64,000 nucleotides of DNA from Bacteriovoracales bacterium (lineage in GTDB: Bacteria; Bdellovibrionota; Bacteriovoracia; Bacteriovoracales; Bacteriovoracaceae), in contig JASBRV010000119.1 of the NCBI GenBank assembly GCA_030149295.1, positions 5,332 to 69,331 on the forward strand, written 5' to 3'. The position numbers and the translations under genes were made by a program. Under the pieces are notes generated by a model. That model saw only the letters and a program-made list of their open reading frames with translations, did no database searches and was not told the origin of the DNA. This document shows, one piece after another, positions 1,104 to 51,495 of this stretch (its first letter is position 1; each line of letters opens with the position of its first letter).

Positions 1104-2900
1104 CTAGCTTAGATAAATCATAGAACCCAGCAGCAAAGGAAGGTAAAAAATTGACCCAAAAAAATAAATTCGCGCCCACTTTCTCAACAACTCTTCTTGC
1201 TGGTTGGGAACCAATAAAACTTTTATAGAAACCAATAAAAAAATGAAATTGAGGAAAACAGAAAAATAACCGTAAAGATCCGTGACTCCAATATCGTAAA
1301 TCCACGGATAAAGAGCGACATAAGCCAATAACGCGGTCAGGCTAAATATTCCCCATTTGGTTAAAGTAAGCCCAAAAGAGTTTGGATAAACTTTAATATC
1401 TGCTTTTCCATAATCCTTAGCATGATAAATGGAGATGGCAAGAAAATGAGGAAGCTGCCAAACGAAGAGAATCCAAAAAAGGGCCCATCCCATTTCTGTC
1501 ATTTTACCCATGACAATAGTCCAGCCCATTAACGGAGGCAGAGCTCCAGGGACGGCGCCAACATAAAGGGCAAGAACACTTTTTTGCTTTAAGGGCGTGT
1601 AAGCGAAAACATAAAGCGAAGCAGCAATAAAGCCCAACCAAGCAGTTAAACCGTTAACAGTCCAATAAAGACCGGCCAATGCCACGATCATAAGAAAACT
1701 ACTAGCGAAAAGGGCAGTCTTCGGATTCATTCTCCCCGCAGGAAGTGGACGCTCTTTTGTGCGGTCCATCAACTTATCAATATCTCTTTCCATCCAGCAA
1801 TTAAAAGCTGCAGCTCCCATGACCAGAATAAAAGTAAAGAAAAAGCCCTTTAGTCCCAAGAAGAAATCCAAAGGTCTCGGAGCTAACATCATGCCGACAA
1901 AGACCGTCGACATCACAAGCATTCCAAGACGAGGCTTTGTGATCTCTAACATGTCGCTCCAAAAGGAAAACCTTTTCTCTGCCAATTTTTCCTTTTCTAC
2001 CGCCCGTACCTGAAGATTAAGCTTCCAAAGAAGTGCGAGGGAAAGCACGCCACTGGTAAAATGAAAAATCGTCCACGGCTGAGAGAGCTTCCAAGCCACG
2101 GCCAAAAGGCCAAGAATCTGCTGAAGAGAAAGAGCTATAAAAGCTAAAGCTGCTACCTTTTTTAAGGAAATGCTCATTTGCTGTTTATTTAAGTGAAAAA
2201 TCCAAATAGCGGCAAAGGCCCAAGTAAAAAAGGAAACAATGCGATAAAACATATGAATCTGCCCAGGAGCACCTTTTGGCCACAAGCTGCTACCAGTACT
2301 GGCGTTGCAAGAGAGAACAGATTCCCATCCAAGACCACACGCATTAAGAACCCCTGCATGGCGAACAAAAGCTCCAAGAACAATAGTTGAAGCTGAAAGA
2401 AAAACCAGCAGACCAAGGCCATCAGATAGTTGAAGCCCACCCCAAAGCCTAGGTGTCAGACTCCATTCTTTGAGAGAGGATTTTAAAGAAATTCGATGAT
2501 CAATAAGAATAAGGGTCGTAACAAAAAATAAGGAAAGAGCAAAATGACTCGTGTTTACAATGGTAGGCAGTCGATAAAAGCTCGTGATTCCTCCAAGTAA
2601 ACCCTGGATACCCACTAGGAAAAGGGCAAAGAAACCTAATAGACTTAAGTTTTGGGTTTCATGATCCTTTTCATTTTTTTTGAGAACAAAGGCTAAAACA
2701 AGGGTGAGCATTCCTACGATAAGACCCAAAAAGCGATGACCTTTATTGAGACTAAAGTCCATAGGCTCACTGGCTCCATAACAAAGGGGCCAGCTGGTAC
2801 AAACCAGCGAATTGCTCGAATAATGGACCATCACTCCAAGGAGCAATAGCCCAAACGAGAACACAATGGTAATAAGACTATAAGTTCTTGCGCGTGTCAT
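1104..2900 (-). CDS. ctaB: fused heme A synthase (CtaA/COX15-like, N-terminal half) and protoheme IX farnesyltransferase (CtaB/CyoE, C-terminal half)
   Basis: 598 aa polytopic membrane protein. The N-terminus has the C-x2-WPLC-x-G motif of CtaA. The C-terminal half starts with the LEITKPRLG...UbiA-type prenyltransferase pattern typical of heme O synthase. Confidence 0.8.
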   Translation of the reverse strand: MTRARTYSLITIVFSFGLLLLGVMVHYSSNSLVCTSWPLCYGASEPMDFSLNKGHRFLGLIVGMLTLVLAFVLKKNEKDHETQNLSLLGFFALFLVGIQGLLGGITSFYRLPTIVNTSHFALSLFFVTTLILIDHRISLKSSLKEWSLTPRLWGGLQLSDGLGLLVFLSASTIVLGAFVRHAGVLNACGLGWESVLSCNASTGSSLWPKGAPGQIHMFYRIVSFFTWAFAAIWIFHLNKQQMSISLKKVAALAFIALSLQQILGLLAVAWKLSQPWTIFHFTSGVLSLALLWKLNLQVRAVEKEKLAEKRFSFWSDMLEITKPRLGMLVMSTVFVGMMLAPRPLDFFLGLKGFFFTFILVMGAAAFNCWMERDIDKLMDRTKERPLPAGRMNPKTALFASSFLMIVALAGLYWTVNGLTAWLGFIAASLYVFAYTPLKQKSVLALYVGAVPGALPPLMGWTIVMGKMTEMGWALFWILFVWQLPHFLAISIYHAKDYGKADIKVYPNSFGLTLTKWGIFSLTALLAYVALYPWIYDIGVTDLYGYFSVFLNFIFLLVSIKVLLVPNQQEELLRKWARIYFFGSIFYLPLLLGSMIYLS

Positions 2901-2986
2901 AAGAAAATCTATTTCTGAGGTTTATACACATCTCAATTGGCTATCGCAATAAAATCCGGTCAAACGGTAAAGTTTCAGGGGGGAAA

Positions 2987-4081
2987 ATGAGTACAAAAAG
3001 CGAAGGCACATATTATGGTGATTACCTCGAGTTAAAGAGCCTTTTATCGACTCAAAAGCCAAAAAGTGCCGAAGTTGGCGATGAAGCCCACGACGAAACT
3101 CTCTTTATTATTGTGCATCAAGTTTATGAACTATGGTTTAAACAAATCATTCATGAATTCAGCTCTGTCTTGGACATCTTTAGACAAAACCAGATTCCAG
3201 AAAATTCTATTGCAACTGCTGTCACGAGATTGGAAAGAATCATAAAAATTCAAAATCTTTTATTGGACCAACTTCCCGTCATGGAAACAATGAGTCCCAT
3301 GGATTTTCTTGAATTTAGAGATCTTCTTGTTCCCGCCTCTGGTTTTCAATCTGTTCAATTTAGAGAGATAGAAGTGCGTATGGGTTTAAGAACTCATAAC
3401 CGTAAAGCTGTGGATCGCAATTACTTTCTCGGGCGCCTAAGTGAAGAAGACAAAAACCATATCTTAGCCGTTGAGGAAGATAAGTCCTTATTAGAACTTA
3501 TTGGAGAATGGCTAGAGCGCATGCCCTTCACCCAACAAAAGAATTTTAACTTTTGGGATGAATACGAAAAAATCGTCACACGAATGCTTGAGCGTGATTT
3601 AGAAACCATTGAGAAAAATCTAGCGACCCTCCCTCCCAAAGCGAAAGAAGCAAACCTTGCCAATATTGAAGCCACAAAGAAAACTTTTGCCACTCTTTTT
3701 AAAGCAGAAGATCACAAAAAGCTCGTGGAGGACGGTAAAAGAAAACTCTCCCAAAAGGCCACTCTAAATGCCCTTTTCATTCTTCTTTATAGAGAAGAGC
3801 CTCTTCTTCATATTCCCTATCGCCTTCTTACTTGCCTTATGGATATCGACGAAAATTTTACAACGTGGCGCTATCGTCACGCTCTAATGGCCCATAGAAT
3901 GCTCGGTACGAAGATTGGCACAGGGGGATCTTCTGGTCACCACTACTTGAAAATGGCAGCGGAGAACAATCGTGTCTATGAAGACCTCTTCAATCTTTCG
4001 ACATTTCTCATTTCGAGAAAGGAACTTCCCCAGCTACCTGAAGAAATTAAAAAGAGTTTGAATTTTAATTTTGAGAGTTGA
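2987..4081 (+). CDS. kynA: tryptophan 2,3-dioxygenase
   Basis: 364 aa. The N-terminal YGDYL.L..LL..Q and HDE.LFI..HQ.YELWFKQ motifs are characteristic of TDO. Lies in the kynurenine-pathway cluster. Confidence 0.9.
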   Translation: MSTKSEGTYYGDYLELKSLLSTQKPKSAEVGDEAHDETLFIIVHQVYELWFKQIIHEFSSVLDIFRQNQIPENSIATAVTRLERIIKIQNLLLDQLPVMETMSPMDFLEFRDLLVPASGFQSVQFREIEVRMGLRTHNRKAVDRNYFLGRLSEEDKNHILAVEEDKSLLELIGEWLERMPFTQQKNFNFWDEYEKIVTRMLERDLETIEKNLATLPPKAKEANLANIEATKKTFATLFKAEDHKKLVEDGKRKLSQKATLNALFILLYREEPLLHIPYRLLTCLMDIDENFTTWRYRHALMAHRMLGTKIGTGGSSGHHYLKMAAENNRVYEDLFNLSTFLISRKELPQLPEEIKKSLNFNFES

Positions 4082-5815: not shown

Positions 5816-7095
5816 ACAGCAGAACCTATAACTTTTACGAGTTCAAAACAGTCTTCAAAGGAATTATAAAGAGGTATGGGAGCCATCCTTAAAATATCAG
5901 GCTCACGAAAGTCTACGATAGCTCCTGCTTCTTTTAATTTTTCTTCAACATTCTTTGCGTCACCCTTAACGCGAACACAAAGCATAGATCCTCTCGTTTG
6001 TTTTCCTTCAACATAAGGAGGTGTCACGATTTCAATTTTATTGCCGCAATTTTCTTTTAAAAGCCATTCTAGATAACCTGTTAAGTTATCTCCCTTGGCA
6101 CGTAAATTATCCATGCCAACAGAATCATAATGATCGAGACTGGCGCGAATAGCTGCAAGTTGAAAAATGGGGGGGTTAGAAAGTTGCCACGACTCCACTG
6201 AATCCATTGATTCGAATTCAGGTTTCATCTTAAATCTTGTTTCTTTTTTGGTTCCCCACCATCCCTCAAAGCGAGGCATCTTGGGGTCTTTATGATGTTT
6301 TTCATGAACAAAAGCCCCCGCAAGACCACCAGGGCCAGAATTTAAATACTTGTAAGTACACCAAACAGCAAAGTCCGCTTCATGCTTATGAAGATCAAGT
6401 TTCAGATTTCCTGCACCATGAGCAAGATTAAAACCAACCATAGCCCCTACAGACTTAGCCGCTGCAACAACTTTTTCAAAATCAAAGCATTGACCTGATA
6501 GATAGTTACAATTACCAAGCATCACAAGAGCAAGGGAGTCCCCATGACTTTTAATTTGACTAACAAGCTCATCATCAGTCAAAGTCATTTTCCCATCACT
6601 AGGTTGAAGTTGAACAATGGCTTCTTTAGGATCAAAGCCATGAAAACGCGCTTGAGAATCCACTGCATACTTATCAGAAGGGAAAGTCGTATTTTCAATA
6701 AGAATTTTATAACGAGATTGAGTCGGTCTATAAAAACTCACCATCATAAGATGCAGATTTACAGTAAGTGAATTCATCACGACAACTTCACTTGGTTTTC
6801 CACCGACAACCTTTGCCATTTTTTCCGTTAAAAACTCATGGTACGGCATCCAAGGATGTTTACCCTTAAAATGTCCTTCTACACCAAAAGCTTTCCAAGC
6901 ATTGAGCTCTTCTTGAATATAAGCTTCTGCATTTTTAGGCATTAGGCCCAAAGAGTGACCTGTGAAGTATAGACACTTTTCTCCATTCTCTGTGAGGGGA
7001 AAATGAAACTCATTTCGAGTGTTGTAAAACTCGTCCTGATTATCGAGCTCCTTAGCCCCTTGAATTGAATTGTGCTTTTCATTAAATGTCATCAT
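5812..7095 (-). CDS. kynU: kynureninase (PLP-dependent)
   Basis: 427 aa. FTGHSLGLMPK, class V aminotransferase-like, with a TYKYLNSGPG lysine region. Confidence 0.9.
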   Translation of the reverse strand: MMTFNEKHNSIQGAKELDNQDEFYNTRNEFHFPLTENGEKCLYFTGHSLGLMPKNAEAYIQEELNAWKAFGVEGHFKGKHPWMPYHEFLTEKMAKVVGGKPSEVVVMNSLTVNLHLMMVSFYRPTQSRYKILIENTTFPSDKYAVDSQARFHGFDPKEAIVQLQPSDGKMTLTDDELVSQIKSHGDSLALVMLGNCNYLSGQCFDFEKVVAAAKSVGAMVGFNLAHGAGNLKLDLHKHEADFAVWCTYKYLNSGPGGLAGAFVHEKHHKDPKMPRFEGWWGTKKETRFKMKPEFESMDSVESWQLSNPPIFQLAAIRASLDHYDSVGMDNLRAKGDNLTGYLEWLLKENCGNKIEIVTPPYVEGKQTRGSMLCVRVKGDAKNVEEKLKEAGAIVDFREPDILRMAPIPLYNSFEDCFELVKVIGSAV

Positions 7096-40870: not shown

Positions 40871-42496
40871 TTACATATTTAAATTAACACCTGCAGGCTT
40901 AACAATCGCTAGTAGGCTTTGGAAAGCTTGAGTCACTTGAAGGGCCATTTTATGACCTTGCTTTGACTCTACTTTCTTAATTTCGCCATAGTTATCGTAA
41001 GCTACATTAATCTTCCCTTCTCCTTCCATGTTGATCTCAACAGGCTTTCCAAGAGAGTTGTAAGTAAAGCTTAATTTTCTTGTTTTGTTAGTCTTAAGAT
41101 CTTTGTCGTACATCTTTGTGATACGGCCTTTAGTATCGTAGAAGAGAATAACAGATTTACCTTTGTCATTTGTCGCTTGAACAAGATTAGCACGCTTGTC
41201 GTACTTAAACTTCGTTGTACCTTTATTGTTAACAACCTTGGTAATTTTGTTAAACTTAGGGTGATACTCTAGTTCGACTGACTCTCCACGAGAAGAAGCT
41301 TTCTTTGTGAGAAGCCCTTTCTCGTTGTACTCAAAGGTTGTCGTGTTGTTTCCTCTAGCGATCTTAAGAGGAAGTGAGCAACATTCTGAGTAAACAGTCT
41401 CTGTTTTAATACCATTAATTTCCGTAGCAATCCTATAAGTATACTGTGATCCATCAGGACGAGTCTTAATTTCATACTCATACTTAGAAACAGATTTTTT
41501 CCCACTAGGAGATGTTTTTGTCACAGTTGTCCAGTAGTGAAACTCTGGATTCTTAGGATTAGACTCGTACTTATACTTTGTTGACTCACCATTTCTAGCA
41601 ACTACTTCTTCAACAAATTGAGTCTTTGGTGTGTATTTGATTTTGAGTTTTGATCCATCTGAGTAAACAACAGCTGTCATATTGTGATTACCGTCATACT
41701 CATACTTAAAGACATTTCCTGCAACGTCCTTAGACTCAATGAGGTTGTCGCCACGGTACTTATAAGCGGTTTTTTTATCACCTGAAGAGTAAATATGTTT
41801 AACTTTTCCGTCTGTGTACCACTCGAAGAAAAGTTGCTTCGCCTGGCTATCTTTAATAGATGCAAGCTGACCTTTCTTATAATTGAGGTTTACAACGTAG
41901 CCGTTCTTGGTTTTCATTTTAACGAGCTTACCGTCAGCATTAAAATACTCTTTTTTGCCGTCATTAAAGGCTCTCATAAAACCATCTTTCGTCTTTACGA
42001 TTTTTTGTAGTCCACGAACGTTTGAGAATAACTCTGTTCCAGCAGCGATTTTTGCTTGAACCTTAAACTTACGAGCATATGCTTGCCTGTATTCTGCGTC
42101 GTTTTTAAGTTTATCTAATAGAGTCTTTGCTGCTTTATCACTTAATGTCGATTTCTTACGAATTGCAGAGAGAATATCTTGTGCTGCCTTTTCTGCGTTT
42201 ACTGCTGTCTTAGGAGTAAATCTCGTTAAAGCACCTGATCCGTTTTCATGAACGACAACAGATCCGTCAGCAGAAACTGTGACGTAGGTTTCATAGTCAC
42301 TACCCCAACCAAAACCAAACCAACCCTTTTCCGTTGATTTTGAATTGTTGGTTCTCGTAATCTCAAGATCCATGCCTCCACCAGGAACAATGATATCTGT
42401 ATAGGAAATATAAAAATTCCCGTTTTTCAGATTCACCCCGGCCATCGCCATCGATGGGATCAAAAGTAAAAGTAACAACAGTTTCATAGCTCTCAT
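40871..42496 (-). CDS. secreted YD/RHS-repeat protein (short, no recognisable C-terminal toxin domain)
   Basis: 541 aa with a signal peptide. The N-terminal VNLKNGNFYISYTDI.VPGGG..L...R..NS....G.FG.GW pattern is typical of Rhs-family N-terminal domains. Multiple YxYD / Y.YD..G repeats follow (FKYEYDGNHNM, YKYRGDNL, FEYNEKGL, ...). Confidence 0.8.
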   Translation of the reverse strand: MRAMKLLLLLLLIPSMAMAGVNLKNGNFYISYTDIIVPGGGMDLEITRTNNSKSTEKGWFGFGWGSDYETYVTVSADGSVVVHENGSGALTRFTPKTAVNAEKAAQDILSAIRKKSTLSDKAAKTLLDKLKNDAEYRQAYARKFKVQAKIAAGTELFSNVRGLQKIVKTKDGFMRAFNDGKKEYFNADGKLVKMKTKNGYVVNLNYKKGQLASIKDSQAKQLFFEWYTDGKVKHIYSSGDKKTAYKYRGDNLIESKDVAGNVFKYEYDGNHNMTAVVYSDGSKLKIKYTPKTQFVEEVVARNGESTKYKYESNPKNPEFHYWTTVTKTSPSGKKSVSKYEYEIKTRPDGSQYTYRIATEINGIKTETVYSECCSLPLKIARGNNTTTFEYNEKGLLTKKASSRGESVELEYHPKFNKITKVVNNKGTTKFKYDKRANLVQATNDKGKSVILFYDTKGRITKMYDKDLKTNKTRKLSFTYNSLGKPVEINMEGEGKINVAYDNYGEIKKVESKQGHKMALQVTQAFQSLLAIVKPAGVNLNM

Positions 42497-42586: not shown

Positions 42587-43480
42587 CTAAGTCTTTATTT
42601 TTACTATCTTTAAGATGACCCAAAATCCTACGGCATCCAAAGTTATCGCCGCAATAGTCAACAAAATACCGATGGGATTCGTCACCATGAGTTTAATGGA
42701 GTTGGGATCACTGGCAGCGTAGATTCCAGCAATGGCAAAAGGCATACACGCAATAGTTACTCCTTGGAACATCCCTTGAGCTGTGTAGGTGTCAATTTTC
42801 TGTTGGAGGCGAACTCTTTCTCTGATAACTCCAACAATGGTATCAAATACCTCCGCAAGGTTACCGCCAGTTTCCCTTAGGATATTGATGGAAGAAACGA
42901 ACATTTCGTTATCTTCTGTTGGAACTCGTTTTACTAAATTTTCAAAACACTCTTCTAAAGTGACACCGATTCTATTTTGTTGAAGAATTAAACCAAATTC
43001 TTGAGATAGTGGTGGGTTCATCTCGTTAACCACCATCCCCAATGATTGAGGTACCGAAAGGCCAGCCCGAATGCCATTAGCAAGCAAGGTTAGACCGTCA
43101 ACCATTTGGCCTTGAAATTGCTTTATCCGCCTTTCAACTAAAAAGTCCACAATCTTTCGGGGAATGCGAAAGGAAAGCACTCCAACGATAATTCCAACAA
43201 TAAAGCCTAAAATCCAGTTTATCCACAAACCAAATAAAAGCATCGAGAAAGTAAATAATGAAAGAGAAAAAACGAGAAGGATCATTGTTAGCTTCTCTGG
43301 ATCAACTTCAATAAAAAGAAGCTCTAGCTTTTCAAGGATATAAGTTCTTGTACCAAGGGTCTGTGACTCAATCCAATCGAAAATATTCGTCGAATACCTA
43401 AGACAAAAGATAAAAACAAGCATCGCAATGACTGCGATAATTCCCTTTTGCCCTAGTATGGTGGTAATGACATAATCCAT
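42587..43480 (-). CDS. tadB: Tad pilus inner-membrane platform protein (TadB/TadC, T2SS-F family); only one copy present
   Basis: 297 aa. TM-cytoplasmic helical domain-TM architecture of the GspF/TadB family. Lies in the Tad operon. Confidence 0.8.
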   Translation of the reverse strand: MDYVITTILGQKGIIAVIAMLVFIFCLRYSTNIFDWIESQTLGTRTYILEKLELLFIEVDPEKLTMILLVFSLSLFTFSMLLFGLWINWILGFIVGIIVGVLSFRIPRKIVDFLVERRIKQFQGQMVDGLTLLANGIRAGLSVPQSLGMVVNEMNPPLSQEFGLILQQNRIGVTLEECFENLVKRVPTEDNEMFVSSINILRETGGNLAEVFDTIVGVIRERVRLQQKIDTYTAQGMFQGVTIACMPFAIAGIYAASDPNSIKLMVTNPIGILLTIAAITLDAVGFWVILKIVKIKT

Positions 43481-45727: not shown

Positions 45728-47203
45728 TTAACGGCGCCTCCGCCTAAATTTCTTTTTGATATCTTCAGTTCCTGCACTTGCTGACTCAACAATCTCGGGT
45801 GTCACAAAAACAACAAACTGGCTTTTTGAATTTGAAAAAGCTTTCGATCGAATAAAGTTAAAAAGAGGACTAGAGCCTTCAATTTCATCTGGTGGAATTT
45901 TATCGTAGTCCGTACTCGACTTATTGACGACAATACCACCAATCACCGCGGATTCTTTAGACTTTACAATGACTTCTGTGGTGACATTATTTGACTGAGT
46001 TGAAGGAGGACTGGTCCCAATATTGGTTGAAATAGTAACATTAAGTTCCATATTGATACGCTCTTCTTGAAGAACTTCAGGCTTTACTTTAACGTTAAAA
46101 GTCGCCGTTGCTTCTTGAGCTTGAGCGAACTCACCAGAGCCAAGGGAAAACCTTCGCGTGTCGGTTTTATTGATCGAGCCATTCTTTTTATCTTTAACAA
46201 GGACAACTCCCGATTGAACGACTCGTGCATACCCAGCTTGCCTGGCGGCATTAAGCTTAGGAAAAAGATTTGAAATGGTGCCACTCAAAGTTCCATCCGA
46301 TCTTGTGGTCACCCCACCATCTTGTGTTCGACCAACACTAATGGTTCCCGAGCCGTTAGAAACGAGAGGTGTCCACTTAAAACCAAAGGTTTTTGAATAA
46401 TCTTTTGTTAACTCAACAAATTGCGCCGTTATTTTTATGAGTTTTTCTAATGGAGGTGGCTCACTTTTCGCATTTACTTGAATAAAGTTTTGAATCGCCG
46501 GTTTTTGAGCCTGGACGATTTGCTGCGTTCTTTCCGCCAAAGAAGCAATTCTGTCTGGATAAAAAGCTTTTGCGATATCTTCAGCCCTTCTCTTTTTTCC
46601 TTCAGAATTAACAATACCTTCCAACCAATAAGTATGATTCACAACCCTAACCGTAACATTGGGAAGTTGATTTTTCTGAATCTCCTCCTGCATCTTTCTC
46701 GCAACAAGCCTTTCCGTCTGAGGAGAAAGTTCAACGAGAAAGAGAACTTCTCCAAACTTTTCTTGATTTAAAACCTTAACAACACGGCCAATTTCTTGGG
46801 GCACAATAATTTCACCACCAACATATATCGTCTCGCCTTTGATACCTATTTCTAGGCCTTCAACATCGCCAATAAAGTCTTTTAATTCTTTAACGAGTCG
46901 AGACTGATCATTTGCCGTAATAGTAATCAAATACTTTGCCTTCACATCTCCAACATTATTACGAAGAGTCACAGATGTTTTTCCTGGCTTAAGCCCTGTA
47001 AATGTAATTTCTCTTTTTTGAGGAATCATCGTAATTCTTAAAAGGGACTCATCACCAATTTGAACTTGAGGATTGGGTGCGAAGTTAAGTTTTTCAATTT
47101 TATCTATACCAAGAATAACCTCGACAGGCTTTTCTTGTACCCCTTGTGAAAAGACCGAAAGCGAAATGATGAAAAAGAGAAAGGGGGTCAGTTTACTTAT
47201 CAA
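45728..47203 (-). CDS. cpaC: Tad pilus outer-membrane secretin CpaC/RcpA
   Basis: 491 aa with a signal peptide. N-terminal pilus-formation domain and a C-terminal secretin domain (…VVFVTPEIV…). Confidence 0.85.
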   Translation of the reverse strand: MISKLTPFLFFIISLSVFSQGVQEKPVEVILGIDKIEKLNFAPNPQVQIGDESLLRITMIPQKREITFTGLKPGKTSVTLRNNVGDVKAKYLITITANDQSRLVKELKDFIGDVEGLEIGIKGETIYVGGEIIVPQEIGRVVKVLNQEKFGEVLFLVELSPQTERLVARKMQEEIQKNQLPNVTVRVVNHTYWLEGIVNSEGKKRRAEDIAKAFYPDRIASLAERTQQIVQAQKPAIQNFIQVNAKSEPPPLEKLIKITAQFVELTKDYSKTFGFKWTPLVSNGSGTISVGRTQDGGVTTRSDGTLSGTISNLFPKLNAARQAGYARVVQSGVVLVKDKKNGSINKTDTRRFSLGSGEFAQAQEATATFNVKVKPEVLQEERINMELNVTISTNIGTSPPSTQSNNVTTEVIVKSKESAVIGGIVVNKSSTDYDKIPPDEIEGSSPLFNFIRSKAFSNSKSQFVVFVTPEIVESASAGTEDIKKKFRRRRR

Positions 47204-47205
47204 GA

Positions 47206-48024
47206 CTAGCGTCCTCCCCTAATTTTCTTTTGCTCTTCAAAGAATTGTTTTGCTTCAGCACGTCCATCTTCTCCGATAACATCAAAAATATCCGTCGACT
47301 TTATCCGAACAATTTTCTTGTCATTGTTATTTCTCAGAGAAAGCCAAGGCTTTGCACCTGTCCAATAAGTAAGAAAAACCAGCTTTTGAGCCTCGTAAGG
47401 AGTAAGCTCTAAAGTAACCGTGTCATAACGATCATAAACCTGTGCTTTCATCGTTCGAATTTCTTTAGGAGTTTTCACCCCGTAAATAGGAATCGCGTTG
47501 GTCATACTCTTTCCCGTCGAAAGGACAAGAACGTCTTGCAAGATGGTACTGGTCTTTTGCATATCTTTTTGACCATTAGAAATGTCTAAGGGCGCCAAAA
47601 TATCAACACGGTCACCTGGTTTAATAAGCTTCGATACCGCCTGCCTTTCGGAGATCTGAATGGCAATGGCCCTTTTACCTATACTCACCTGTCTCGATAA
47701 GCCAGTCTCAGCACCAGGATAGGTTACCCTTGGTTTTGTTATTTGTTCACCGGCCATAATAGGAACAGTTGCCATGGTATTTTCTAGAGCTTTAATTTTA
47801 TTGAAACTTCCAGGTGAGGCGAATGCTTTCGGAACGTTCTTAGCAATCAACATCGTATCATCTAAGAGCTCTAATTCTTTAATATCTCTTTTCGCAACAA
47901 CAACGGAAACTTCGTCACCGTATTTTCGAATGTAATTCGCTTCTTGATCTTCCAGATAGGTGTAGACCATAAAAACGGCAATACCAGCTATAACCAACGC
48001 CAGGGTAAAGGCCCGAGTGTTCAC
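47206..48024 (-). CDS. cpaB: Flp pilus assembly protein CpaB/RcpC (SAF domain)
   Basis: 272 aa with an N-terminal TM helix. SAF-like VVVAKRDI..... segment. Positioned between the pseudopilins and the secretin. Confidence 0.8.
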   Translation of the reverse strand: MNTRAFTLALVIAGIAVFMVYTYLEDQEANYIRKYGDEVSVVVAKRDIKELELLDDTMLIAKNVPKAFASPGSFNKIKALENTMATVPIMAGEQITKPRVTYPGAETGLSRQVSIGKRAIAIQISERQAVSKLIKPGDRVDILAPLDISNGQKDMQKTSTILQDVLVLSTGKSMTNAIPIYGVKTPKEIRTMKAQVYDRYDTVTLELTPYEAQKLVFLTYWTGAKPWLSLRNNNDKKIVRIKSTDIFDVIGEDGRAEAKQFFEEQKKIRGGR

Positions 48025-48109: not shown

Positions 48110-48640
48110 CTATTCACCGTCAGATATAGCACAAACGTTATTCTGATTATTTGGGTCAGGTTGTCCCTCCCCACCAGCATTGGGAATTATCCATCTTTGG
48201 CCCGCTCTTGTATAAAAAGCTCCGCAAATACCATAGGCCGTATAAACTCTGACATAAGAGGTCTGTCTTTCACCGCTATTAGGCTCTTCACAGTCCTCCT
48301 GATCTGAATCAGAAAAGAGTGAGTTAAAGCGAAAACAAGGAGCAACAGGGGACGTTCCCCCCTCCAATTTATCTGCGTAACCAATCATACTTGCCCCCAC
48401 TCGCATTACACCCGAGGTATAAGTATCAAGTTCAAATTGAGATGGAATATAACTGTTTCCTTTCGTCAGAAAGTAATAATAACGTCTAGTTACCTTTTGT
48501 TGATTAATAGAAACATTAATTGAATTTCCAACATTGAATATTAAAGTATAGAGAAAGATCAAAATAGGCATGAACACAAGGAGCTCAAATATCGCTTGAC
48601 CCTCTTCCCGTTTTTTTCTTTTTTTAACATCCATTATCAA
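48110..48640 (-). CDS. TadE/TadG-like pseudopilin
   Basis: 176 aa. N-terminal EEG|QAIFELLVFMPIL prepilin-like segment (G-x4-E-F/Y). Confidence 0.7.
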   Translation of the reverse strand: MIMDVKKRKKREEGQAIFELLVFMPILIFLYTLIFNVGNSINVSINQQKVTRRYYYFLTKGNSYIPSQFELDTYTSGVMRVGASMIGYADKLEGGTSPVAPCFRFNSLFSDSDQEDCEEPNSGERQTSYVRVYTAYGICGAFYTRAGQRWIIPNAGGEGQPDPNNQNNVCAISDGE

Positions 48641-49148
48641 ATACCGTCGAATGCCTTACACAACCAGCTCCACCAACATCTTCTAAAGAAGCACAAATTT
48701 GATAAAAGCATTCTGCCCTCGTCGGCTCCATTCCCAAGTAAGATTCGGAAACCATCGGAATCTCAATTTTTGCATTAGATCCAGGTATCGCTATATTTTC
48801 GGTGAACTCAACCCTTGGACCGATATAAAGATTTCTCGCCCGTGTTTGTCTACTCGCAGGCTCTTCAAACTCAATCGTATTAGGAAAGTTTGGCATGAGT
48901 ACATCGAGTTTATAACTATTAAAAACATCCGTAGCCTGCTTTCTCGCTTCAGAGTCTGATCCATCAGGAGTATTAGAGTTTCTTTCACCTACCATGTAAG
49001 CCCTTGATGCTTGAAAAGTAGCATAATGAATTAAGTAGCCATTGGTGTAAACGACGGCAAGCCTCAAAAAGGCAAAAATAAACCCCAAAGCAATAGCAAA
49101 GCTAAAGAGAAATTCTATCGTTGATTGTCCATCTTCGTTTTTTATCAA
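48624..49148 (-). CDS. TadE-like pseudopilin
   Basis: 174 aa. N-terminal NEDG|QSTIEFLFSFAIAL segment. Confidence 0.75.
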   Translation of the reverse strand: MIKNEDGQSTIEFLFSFAIALGFIFAFLRLAVVYTNGYLIHYATFQASRAYMVGERNSNTPDGSDSEARKQATDVFNSYKLDVLMPNFPNTIEFEEPASRQTRARNLYIGPRVEFTENIAIPGSNAKIEIPMVSESYLGMEPTRAECFYQICASLEDVGGAGCVRHSTVFDNGC

Positions 49149-49160
49149 TTCTATGCCTTA

Positions 49161-49487
49161 TTAATTGTCTGGATAGTTCGACTGATCTGTGAAACCAAAA
49201 AACCGTGAAGTTGATCCATCTGGTTGTGCAAAAGAAGGATGATCATCTGGTGGAACAGAAGGAACATTATTACCAATATCTACTTTAGTGGCATATCGAT
49301 AACTCATAGAGACTCTCTCTGCCACAGTTTGAAAAAATGCAGAATCTTCACCAAAAAATTGTTGAAAGGTATCCGAGCGAAATACGGAAAAGAAAAGAGA
49401 TGTTACTACGGCTAGTAAAAGAATATATTCGACAGTCGACTGCCCGACCTCATTTTTTATTTTACTAAATCTCTTATCATATCCCAT
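49161..49487 (-). CDS. TadE-like pseudopilin (small)
   Basis: About 108 aa, starting from the internal ATG at 49487. N-terminal NEVG|QSTVEYILLLAVV segment. Confidence 0.7.
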   Translation of the reverse strand: MGYDKRFSKIKNEVGQSTVEYILLLAVVTSLFFSVFRSDTFQQFFGEDSAFFQTVAERVSMSYRYATKVDIGNNVPSVPPDDHPSFAQPDGSTSRFFGFTDQSNYPDN

Positions 49488-49969
49488 GAAAAAGCCACCC
49501 AAGAAATTGCGATCACCGGAGCATAAGCAAATTTAGTACCGTAAACACTCTTTATACCCGGAACATTCATAACCCTAACCGCAGCTAACAGTTTATCAAA
49601 GTTTTTAGCCGTGTTGTAGATTAAGAGGTACAAACCTATAGCAATAGTTGAGTAAATCAGTTTAAGAAAAAAGAGTTCATGAAAACTTTCTGGTACTAAC
49701 AAAAAGAAAGAAAAAAGAAACTTTGAATCCCCCCCCCCCATTATTTTAAGAGTGAAAAGGATGAAACCAACTCCAAGAAAGACCAAAGGATAAAAGAAAG
49801 TTGAAAAGGTAAAAGAATAGAGAGTAGGGAAAACAAAGAGACAGGCTAAAAATAAAACTATATTGAGAAGTGACCAATAGTTAGAAATCTTTCGATACTT
49901 AATGTCTATATAGGAAGCAATGGCTAGCTCTGCTCCTAAAAAAAGCAATAAAACGAGCGGGAACTTCAA
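49457..49969 (-). CDS. tadV: prepilin peptidase TadV/CpaA (A24 aspartyl peptidase)
   Basis: 170 aa polytopic protein. First Asp in SYIDIKYRKI and second Asp in the MGGGDSKF motif. Confidence 0.85.
   Translation of the reverse strand: MKFPLVLLLFLGAELAIASYIDIKYRKISNYWSLLNIVLFLACLFVFPTLYSFTFSTFFYPLVFLGVGFILFTLKIMGGGDSKFLFSFFLLVPESFHELFFLKLIYSTIAIGLYLLIYNTAKNFDKLLAAVRVMNVPGIKSVYGTKFAYAPVIAISWVAFSWDMIRDLVK
49729..49739 (-). repeat. G11 homopolymer (C11 on the + strand) inside tadV
   Basis: The coding strand reads ATG GGG GGG GGG GAT, encoding M-G-G-G-D of the catalytic motif. This is the longest G/C run I found in the window. Confidence 0.9.
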
Positions 49970-50184
49970 TTAAATATCCCATTTTGATAACTTCTAAAAA
50001 AACATTCTGATTCACAAACACCAGTCGTTAGCTCTTGAGTGAGGACAAAACCCAAACTTTTGACAGAGTCTTTTATACCCCCTCCGATAGTTTGCGCTAG
50101 GCCAACACCAATAAGAGACATAAAAGCAAATATCAAAATATACTCAATGGTCGCTTGACCTCGTGAGTTTGTAAGATTTTTCAT
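49966..50184 (-). CDS. flp: Flp-family type IVb pilin (second copy, two C-terminal Cys)
   Basis: 72 aa. Processing motif SRG|QATIEYILIFAF. Confidence 0.8.
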   Translation of the reverse strand: MKNLTNSRGQATIEYILIFAFMSLIGVGLAQTIGGGIKDSVKSLGFVLTQELTTGVCESECFFRSYQNGIFN

Positions 50185-50310: not shown

Positions 50311-50502
50311 TTAATTTCCGTTAAGCTCGTTAGTCCAGGAATCGGCACCATCAAAGACTTTGTCCGTTAAATCACCAAGTCTCTGCGTTGCCTTCTCCTT
50401 AAACTTGAAAACGATCAATGCCACAACCGCAACCAATAGAATATATTCGGTTGAAGTTTGCCCGTCCTCATCCTTTAAGAAAGCAATAATTTGGTTTTTC
50501 AT
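50311..50502 (-). CDS. flp: Flp-family type IVb pilin
   Basis: 63 aa. Processing motif DEDG|QTSTEYILLVAVVAL. Confidence 0.85.
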   Translation of the reverse strand: MKNQIIAFLKDEDGQTSTEYILLVAVVALIVFKFKEKATQRLGDLTDKVFDGADSWTNELNGN

Positions 50503-50623: not shown

Positions 50624-50952
50624 AATAAATAGCTTTTTATATTAATTTCGATGAGTTATCTAGGTTATGGTAGTTTATTTCTATTGAATAACGCGTTATT
50701 TTCAGGCATATTAGTAAGTGGGCTTTGTGGTTGGCATACAGTATTTCGCCCTACAAAAACTACCAAGGAAGCGGTCCCTGGCCATGGTGAGCAAGCTCAC
50801 AAAGCTTTTGAGCTGAAAGTGAGAAGCCTAAAATGGTTACTAACTGCGTCCACCTGTCAAATGATGGGCGGAAACTTGAAGCCAGCAAAGCCCACCCTTT
50901 TTCTTTTCCCCGTAAAATTGACATCTTGCCCCCTTAAAATCATCATTAACAT

Positions 50953-51495
50953 ATGGAGAATCTTACAAATAGCCCTAGCCTTGGGTCTGAGAATTGGGCA
51001 ACCTGGATTGAAAACTTAGCTATTGAAGAAGTTAATATGGCAGAATCAGGGGTCATAGATATTCATGAGCATCTCAATCCTATCCATTTTTTAGAGGAAT
51101 CATCCATTGAGTTTATGAATGATATGAGAGATCTCGTTGAAAGATTCATTGCACGCTTTAATGAATATCGCGGTCACCAATCAAGCCAACATATTAAGAT
51201 TTTCAAAATTTCTAATACTGTTAACGATTTCATGTTATTTCGTAATTCTTTGAGACTCATTTTTGCTCGTAAAGCTAATGACCTTATAAGTATTGCCTTT
51301 ATTACTAATGGTAAGGACCTCCTAGCTCCAAGACTTCAAGCTCATGACTCTTTCGGAATGGAAGGTGTTCATGAAATAAGAGCCCACCTTGGCCCATTTA
51401 ATAAAATTACTTGGCGCTTTCAAGGGGAGATTATCGATAAAGAAGCGATGGTGAAACACTACCTTACAGAATTTATTAAGCAATCAGCTCAGTAA
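50953..51495 (+). CDS. hypothetical cytoplasmic protein
   Basis: 180 aa ORF. ATG 51037 is an alternative start. No family recognised and the RBS is poor for both starts. Confidence 0.5.
   Translation: MENLTNSPSLGSENWATWIENLAIEEVNMAESGVIDIHEHLNPIHFLEESSIEFMNDMRDLVERFIARFNEYRGHQSSQHIKIFKISNTVNDFMLFRNSLRLIFARKANDLISIAFITNGKDLLAPRLQAHDSFGMEGVHEIRAHLGPFNKITWRFQGEIIDKEAMVKHYLTEFIKQSAQ

Follow-up and report, generated by a model that had tools for sequence, protein, structure and literature searches.

Prepilin peptidases of the TadV/CpaA/FppA class are short polytopic membrane proteins of Pfam family PF01478 that lack an N-terminal methyltransferase domain and are encoded between the flp pilin and pseudopilin genes of a Tad locus. 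The structural prototype is the FlaK protease (PDB 3s0x). In the predatory genera Bdellovibrio and Bacteriovorax, the Tad cluster forms the syntenic core of the 'hit locus' region (PMC3526173). TadV has been reported in the Tad loci of Halobacteriovorax and Bacteriovorax but is absent from Bdellovibrio (PMC5430801), in which predation needs Flp pilins (PMC5430801). The hit mutations of Bdellovibrio bacteriovorus affect a small ORF (bd0108 of the Tad/Flp cluster) by deletion or point mutation, and they change the lifestyle of the cell. They are rare, at about 1e-7 (PMC3539863).

A second group of described systems, the poly-G/C loci of Campylobacter jejuni, Neisseria and Haemophilus (capA, cj1139, pilC), have intragenic tracts in surface-organelle genes, where a slip is truncating and in principle reversible. 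Different strains have tracts at the same site but of varying length, both ON and OFF alleles are found, and there are tens of such tracts per genome. Contingency loci typically affect surface-organelle genes, and a tract of 11 G is generally expected to slip at a raised rate. In Campylobacter, the ON-to-OFF rate of a G11 tract is 1.6-4.1e-3 per division, and in meningococci proficient in mismatch repair G10-G12 tracts switch at 1-3e-5 (PMC3401435).

Here, a 64 kb stretch of DNA from a Bacteriovoracales bacterium (the window) was analysed, in which the tadV gene of a Tad/Flp locus contains an uninterrupted run of 11 G. A first-pass annotation of the window had proposed that this tract is a phase-variation switch for the Tad pilus. 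The predicted peptidase resembles the TadV/CpaA/FppA class in size, topology, domain content, its aspartate pair (D22 and D81) and the position of its gene, and only the synonymous GGG GGG GGG spelling of G78-G80 is peculiar to it. As in the Campylobacter, Neisseria and Haemophilus loci, the tract consists of 11 G within a surface-organelle gene and a slip would truncate the product. However, unlike those loci, it is unique to one lineage, is present only at the ON length (in two assemblies), is no more frequent than neutral expectation and is accompanied by no other such tract in the 64 kb. The neighbourhood is the same as that of the B. bacteriovorus hit locus, which is syntenic with that of Bacteriovorax (PMC3526173), and for both it has been claimed that mutation of the cluster alters lifestyle. 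However, the hit mutations do not involve homopolymer slippage in a peptidase gene, and Bdellovibrio lacks tadV altogether (PMC5430801). The G11 tract is unrelated in mechanism to the bd0108 deletions and point mutations.

The Tad/Flp locus

The features of the locus are listed in Table 1. The operon, on the minus strand, is compact and includes two flp genes, tadV, three pseudopilin genes, rcpC, a secretin gene, tadZ-tadA and a T2SSF gene. The translations of all five small proteins (two Flp pilins and three pseudopilins) share a leader of the form G/Q-x-x-(x)-E-[YFL]. Hence, the five proteins that the first-pass annotation had put forward as likely TadV substrates are indeed encoded beside tadV and have Flp-type leaders. 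The likely start of pseudopilin 1 is at position 49487, which matches the 108-aa gene call on a second assembled contig of this lineage (Logan contig L001, see below). The annotation had also described a 'hit-like locus' as adjoining the pilus genes, and this agrees with the literature, which equates the Tad locus of such predators with the 'hit locus' region (PMC3526173).

Table 1. Features of the Tad/Flp locus and of the G11 tract (positions are those of the window)
Feature	Position	Strand	Remarks
flp pilin 1, 63 aa, leader ...DEDG/QTSTEYILL	50311..50502	(-)	Flp1_like and Flp_Fap matches, both below the Pfam cut-off; leader read from translation
flp pilin 2, 72 aa, leader ...NSRG/QATIEYILI	49966..50184	(-)	Stop overlaps tadV start by 4 nt
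tadV/cpaA, 170-aa predicted GxGD aspartyl prepilin peptidase	49457..49969	(-)	TTG start, intact frame; Pfam, homologues, AF2 fold
D22, first catalytic Asp, codon GAC	49904..49906	(-)	Invariant column
G11 homopolymer	49729..49739	(-)	Last base of M77 codon, three GGG codons (G78-G80) and first base of D81 codon
D81, second catalytic Asp of GxGD, codon GAT	49727..49729	(-)	Invariant column
TadE/F-like pseudopilin 1, leader ...NEVG/QSTVEYILL	49161..49502	(-)	Overlaps tadV end
TadE/F-like pseudopilin 2, 174 aa, leader MIKNEDG/QSTIEFLF	48624..49148	(-)	
TadE/F-like pseudopilin 3, leader ...KREEG/QAIFELLVF	48110..48640	(-)	
rcpC/cpaB	47206..48024	(-)	SAF and RcpC domains
rcpA/cpaC secretin	45728..47203	(-)	
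Fused TadZ-like (CbiA/ParA) and TadA (T2SSE) ATPase, 745 aa	43490..45727	(-)	
tadB/C-like T2SSF inner-membrane platform protein	42587..43480	(-)	

Several further features of the region were recorded. TadZ and TadA are usually encoded by separate genes in Tad loci. In the window, a single 745-aa ORF includes both a CbiA/ParA domain (residues 4-217) and a T2SSE ATPase domain (residues 346-623). Only one T2SSF (TadB/C-like) gene follows that of the ATPase. The next ORF (40871-42496, minus strand) encodes 541 aa with DUF6531 and RHS repeats, which points to a protein of the polymorphic-toxin type right beside the pilus operon. On the other side, a 180-aa ORF (50953-51495, plus strand) that has no Pfam match is divergent from the flp genes. 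It is kept at the same position in relatives (1467-2009 in locus L162, 1290-1832 in L163 and 140-673 in L046), and may be the 'hit-like' neighbour to which the annotation referred.

The tadV gene and its product

The product of tadV matches Pfam Peptidase_A24 (PF01478) over residues 10-115, with a score of 34.2 bits relative to a cut-off of 26.5. This is the sole domain, and there is no methyltransferase domain. A database search recovered 163 homologues from Bacteriovoracaceae, Halobacteriovoraceae and Bdellovibrionota MAGs, and the named ones are annotated as prepilin peptidase or CpaA. When 28 homologues are aligned, D22, D81, M77, G78 and G80 are invariant and G79 is nearly so, and the GxGD-type motif is conserved in about 150 loci. 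The AlphaFold2 model (pLDDT 89.1) is an all-helical membrane protein and its best fold match in the PDB is FlaK (3s0x; probability 0.99, TM 0.52, E = 0.06). The likeness to FlaK is one of fold only and was reached only by the fold search, as a sequence search of the PDB with the TadV family profile gave no match. From its sequence and modelled fold, the gene is an intact one for a TadV/CpaA-type GxGD aspartyl prepilin peptidase that is predicted to be catalytically active. Thus, the identification of the gene as tadV, with the tract at the GxGD motif and the second catalytic Asp, is confirmed by the Pfam match, the invariant D22 and D81 and the FlaK-like fold.

The G11 tract

Positions 49729-49739 of the plus strand are C11, flanked by T (49728) and A (49740). 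Read on the minus strand, the sequence is ATA ATG GGG GGG GGG GAT TCA AAG, which encodes I-M77-G78-G79-G80-D81-S-K. The G11 tract is the only run of G or C longer than 7 in the window, the next longest being one G7 (at 6169) and nine runs of 6, and about 0.003 runs of at least 11 would be expected from the base composition (39.7 % G+C, 64 kb). As raw DNA, the tract is therefore a strong outlier relative to base composition. The run scan and the minus-strand reading agree with the initial description of the tract as the longest G/C run in the 64 kb and as encoding MGGGD of tadV.

The Gly codons used in the 48 long ORFs of the window are GGT (37 %), GGA (32 %), GGC (16 %) and GGG (14.6 %), consistent with the earlier remark that GGT and GGA are mostly used elsewhere. 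The tadV gene contains nine Gly codons, and GGG is found only at the three consecutive codons of the tract, the other six being GGA or GGT. Given M-G-G-G-D, the probability that all three Gly codons are GGG is 0.003 with the codon usage of the window and 0.012 with the position-wise usage of orthologues. However, the M-G-G-G-D peptide itself forces 8 of the 11 G, namely one at the end of ATG, two at the start of each of the three Gly codons and one at the start of GAT. As these 8 are already fixed, only three synonymous positions are left to be G.

Codons at the motif in orthologues

The codons at the motif were read in 160 orthologous loci from one-genome-per-species and metagenome collections. 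M-G-[GAP]-G-D is conserved throughout and the wobble bases vary freely. In 13 loci, the sequence fell outside the strict motif regular expression. Eight of these are in-frame G.GD[TA]K variants, and in the other five no G.GD[SAT][KR] motif was found in any of the three plus-strand frames. The middle Gly is replaced by Pro (M-G-P-G-D) in L021, L039, L051/L128, L070 and L163, and by Ala (M-G-A-G-D) in L014, L020, L046, L091, L109 and L133. Hence, the central residue of GxGD is free to vary and function does not depend on G-G-G.

Among 114 unique M-G-G-G-D contexts, the G run is 3 long in 50, 4 in 16, 5 in 19, 6 in 21, 7 in 3 and 9 in 5, and runs of at least 10 G were found in none (0/114). The closest relative (L162, 88 % amino acid identity) has GGC GGT GGC, a run of 3. 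L002/L082 (82 % identity) has GGT GGA GGT, also a run of 3, and L003/L118 (75 % identity) has GGG GGA GGG. Four-fold degenerate sites differ between the window tadV and its nearest relatives at 46-66 %. Because synonymous sites are close to saturated, a difference at all three wobble positions carries no signal.

The share of GGG at the three Gly positions among the orthologues is 0.228, 0.237 and 0.228. Under independence of the three positions, 1.4 all-GGG genes would be expected per 114, and 1 in 115 was observed when the window is counted, a comparison (1 versus 1.4) of low power. The counts of the G9 class (5, against about 4.8 expected) and of the x-GGG-GGG class (3, again with about 4.8 expected) are likewise in line with independence. 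From these codon counts, long G runs at the motif appear to be neither enriched nor avoided among the orthologues.

In 555 kb of related Tad loci there are 10 runs of at least 8 G or C, of which six are at this same motif and one is at V-G-G-G-K. As most sit at Gly tripeptide motifs, long G runs in these genomes stem mainly from coding constraint rather than from selection for mutability. In the window, there are four Gly-Gly-Gly tripeptides in 55 kb of ORFs. Extrapolation to about 3.4 Mb, as in the genome of B. marinus SJ (PMC3526173), would give of the order of 250 such tripeptides, about 0.8 of which would be all-GGG by chance.

Two other long tracts were recorded in the related loci. In a Halobacteriovoraceae MAG (L073, JABJPQ010000135.1), a G10 tract at 3107-3116 lies in a TadE-like pseudopilin ORF (2562..3272) and encodes V-G-G-G-K, making it a second Tad-locus case of a long G tract that arises from a Gly-Gly-Gly tripeptide. 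In a Bdellovibrionales MAG (L046, JABGUH010000042.1), a T9G9 compound homopolymer at 727-744 is intergenic. It is located between the flp genes and a divergent gene for 177 aa that is the homologue of the window ORF at 50953..51495. This promoter-region T9G9 could modulate flp expression in that species.

Search for length variants

Exact matches to the TadV, Flp2, pseudopilin and RcpC sequences were sought in other assemblies of this lineage and only one contig, from the Logan collection, was found (L001, SRR23576961_241486, run SRR23576961). Over 4289 bp it matches the window without a single difference, the G11 tract included. Hence, both assemblies of the lineage, the NCBI record and the Logan contig, which are possibly from the same sample, carry G11. 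The Logan contig ends near position 50745, in the 450 bp intergenic region upstream of flp1, whereas the window continues through. Low coverage, a repeat or population heterogeneity could account for this end.

The predicted products of G9, G10, G12 and G13 alleles were looked up as exact matches in a collection of 15 billion proteins and none was found, in a lineage that has been sampled at most twice. Near-identical fragments that include only the N-terminus were also absent from the 163 TadV homologues. Two entries among the homologues were considered as frameshifted alleles and rejected. P0050 ('MGPGD...') is a start miscall in an intact gene (L163), and P0062 ('MGGGD...') is cut by a contig end (L167). 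Contingency-type repeats of other kinds were sought throughout the 64 kb, and A/T runs do not exceed 8 and multi-copy short tandem arrays are absent.

Predicted consequences of slippage

Simulated changes in tract length give products of 96 aa (G9), 90 aa (G10), 97 aa (G12) and 91 aa (G13). All four slipped products lack D81 and end 10-17 codons past the tract. Thus, the prediction that a slip of one base in either direction would truncate TadV before its second catalytic Asp holds for the simulated G10 and G12 alleles.

By analogy with measured poly-G tracts, G11 is probably a slippage hot spot, with tadV-null cells arising in the lineage at an estimated rate between about 1e-5 and 1e-3 per division. 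Such cells would make a 90- or 97-aa product and the Flp pilins and pseudopilins would be left unprocessed. Expression of the overlapping downstream pseudopilin gene would possibly also be lower, because translation would stop about 200 nt early. A PilD peptidase, if one is encoded elsewhere in the genome, could partly rescue a tadV-OFF cell, as presumably occurs in Bdellovibrio, which has no tadV. In an obligate predator, tadV-null cells may simply be lost, in which case the tract would be a small mutational load and no device.

Origin of the tract

We consider that the G11 tract is incidental, having arisen in one lineage through synonymous drift at a motif rich in G, and is not an evolved switch, and we assign this reading a probability of about 70 % on the basis of the sequence comparisons. 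The tadV gene would then be ordinary and functional, with its active-site M-G-G-G-D spelled using three GGG codons in one lineage. The tract is read in this way because the protein dictates 8 of the 11 G and the other three, at third codon positions, drift freely in relatives, and we infer that no adaptive use is made of it. Some findings point the other way. The gene belongs to a surface-organelle locus, a common class of contingency target. The GGG codons of the tract are the only ones in the gene and are consecutive, for which the probability is about 0.003 when this is considered alone, and 11 G is within the length range of tracts proven to be phase variable (PMC3401435).

The alternative is that the tract is an evolved simple-sequence contingency locus, kept by selection, in which slipped-strand mispairing toggles tadV between ON (G11) and OFF (G10 or G12). 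It might serve, for example, in bet-hedging between attachment or predation and a non-piliated state, or in escape from pilus-dependent phage. Beyond the length of the tract, which lies within the proven range (PMC3401435), this proposal draws on its position in the middle of the ORF, where a slip of one base removes D81, and on the presence of all five putative substrates in the same operon. In addition, a search with HMMs of all six-frame ORFs found no second A24 peptidase in the window, the three GGG codons are atypical for both the gene and the window, and a phenotype would be expected, given the need for Flp pilins in Bdellovibrio predation (PMC5430801). However, a long tract was found in 0 of 114 unique orthologue contexts, including those of the relatives that are 88 % and 82 % identical, and the frequency of all-GGG genes equals the neutral expectation, so that the tract is neither retained nor over-represented in relatives. 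Neither a length variant nor a truncated product was found in the public assemblies and protein sets searched, the 64 kb include no other contingency-type repeat, and a search of the literature gave no report of phase variation of tadV or Tad loci by homopolymer slippage. A pilus-null state may also be lethal to an obligate predator. An evolved switch, although physically plausible, is therefore unlikely.

The proposal made in the first-pass annotation is thus left without comparative support, with all-GGG genes at 1 in 115 relative to 1.4 expected and no variants found. That annotation had itself named the use of mixed codons for the same G-G-G in orthologues as evidence against a switch, and mixed codons are what the orthologues have, with runs of 3 in the nearest relatives. 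A lack of conservation among relatives is compatible with a young, strain-specific switch. However, a young but genuine contingency locus that in some cells reversibly shuts down the dedicated Flp prepilin peptidase, and hence the whole pilus, is in our judgement quite improbable.

Sequencing or assembly error, with a true tract that is shorter or interrupted and has been altered by homopolymer miscalling or poly-G read artefacts, is very improbable. Several platforms are prone to errors in homopolymer length, and the two concordant assemblies may have been built from one set of reads. However, exactly 11 G keep the 170-aa frame open and the protein is ungapped relative to orthologues on both sides of the motif. 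The NCBI record and the Logan contig, which were separately produced, agree base for base over 4289 bp, and the run is interior to both contigs and does not resemble a read end. Substitution errors at all three wobble positions would be very unlikely in a consensus. A length artefact, which the first-pass annotation had asked to be excluded, is thus unlikely, because the frame is intact at G11 and the two assemblies are concordant.

Two further candidate roles were rejected. A single G run is unable to form an intramolecular G-quadruplex. Transcriptional slippage or programmed frameshifting on the run was rejected because the frame is open at G11 without any shift, and the other two frames run into a stop 10-17 codons later.

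Implications

If the tract were a true switch, homopolymer phase variation would reach beyond host-associated pathogens to a predatory bacterium of the environment, and random loss of its Tad/Flp pilus would be linked to the 'hit locus' region, which controls whether life is predatory or prey-independent. It could offer this uncultured marine or brackish member of the Bacteriovoracaceae an escape from pilus-targeting phage, or an alternation between attached or predatory cells and dispersing ones. Simple-sequence phase variation would thereby be described for the first time in Bdellovibrionota, as would its action via the active-site motif of a prepilin peptidase.

However, as the evidence stands, the tract is best regarded as a by-product of synonymous drift and its value is mainly cautionary. 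Conserved Gly-rich catalytic motifs such as M-G-G-G-D pre-load 8 of the 11 G, and synonymous drift will therefore produce long runs at them with predictable frequency. To call a contingency locus there, evidence of length polymorphism is needed in addition to a long G run.
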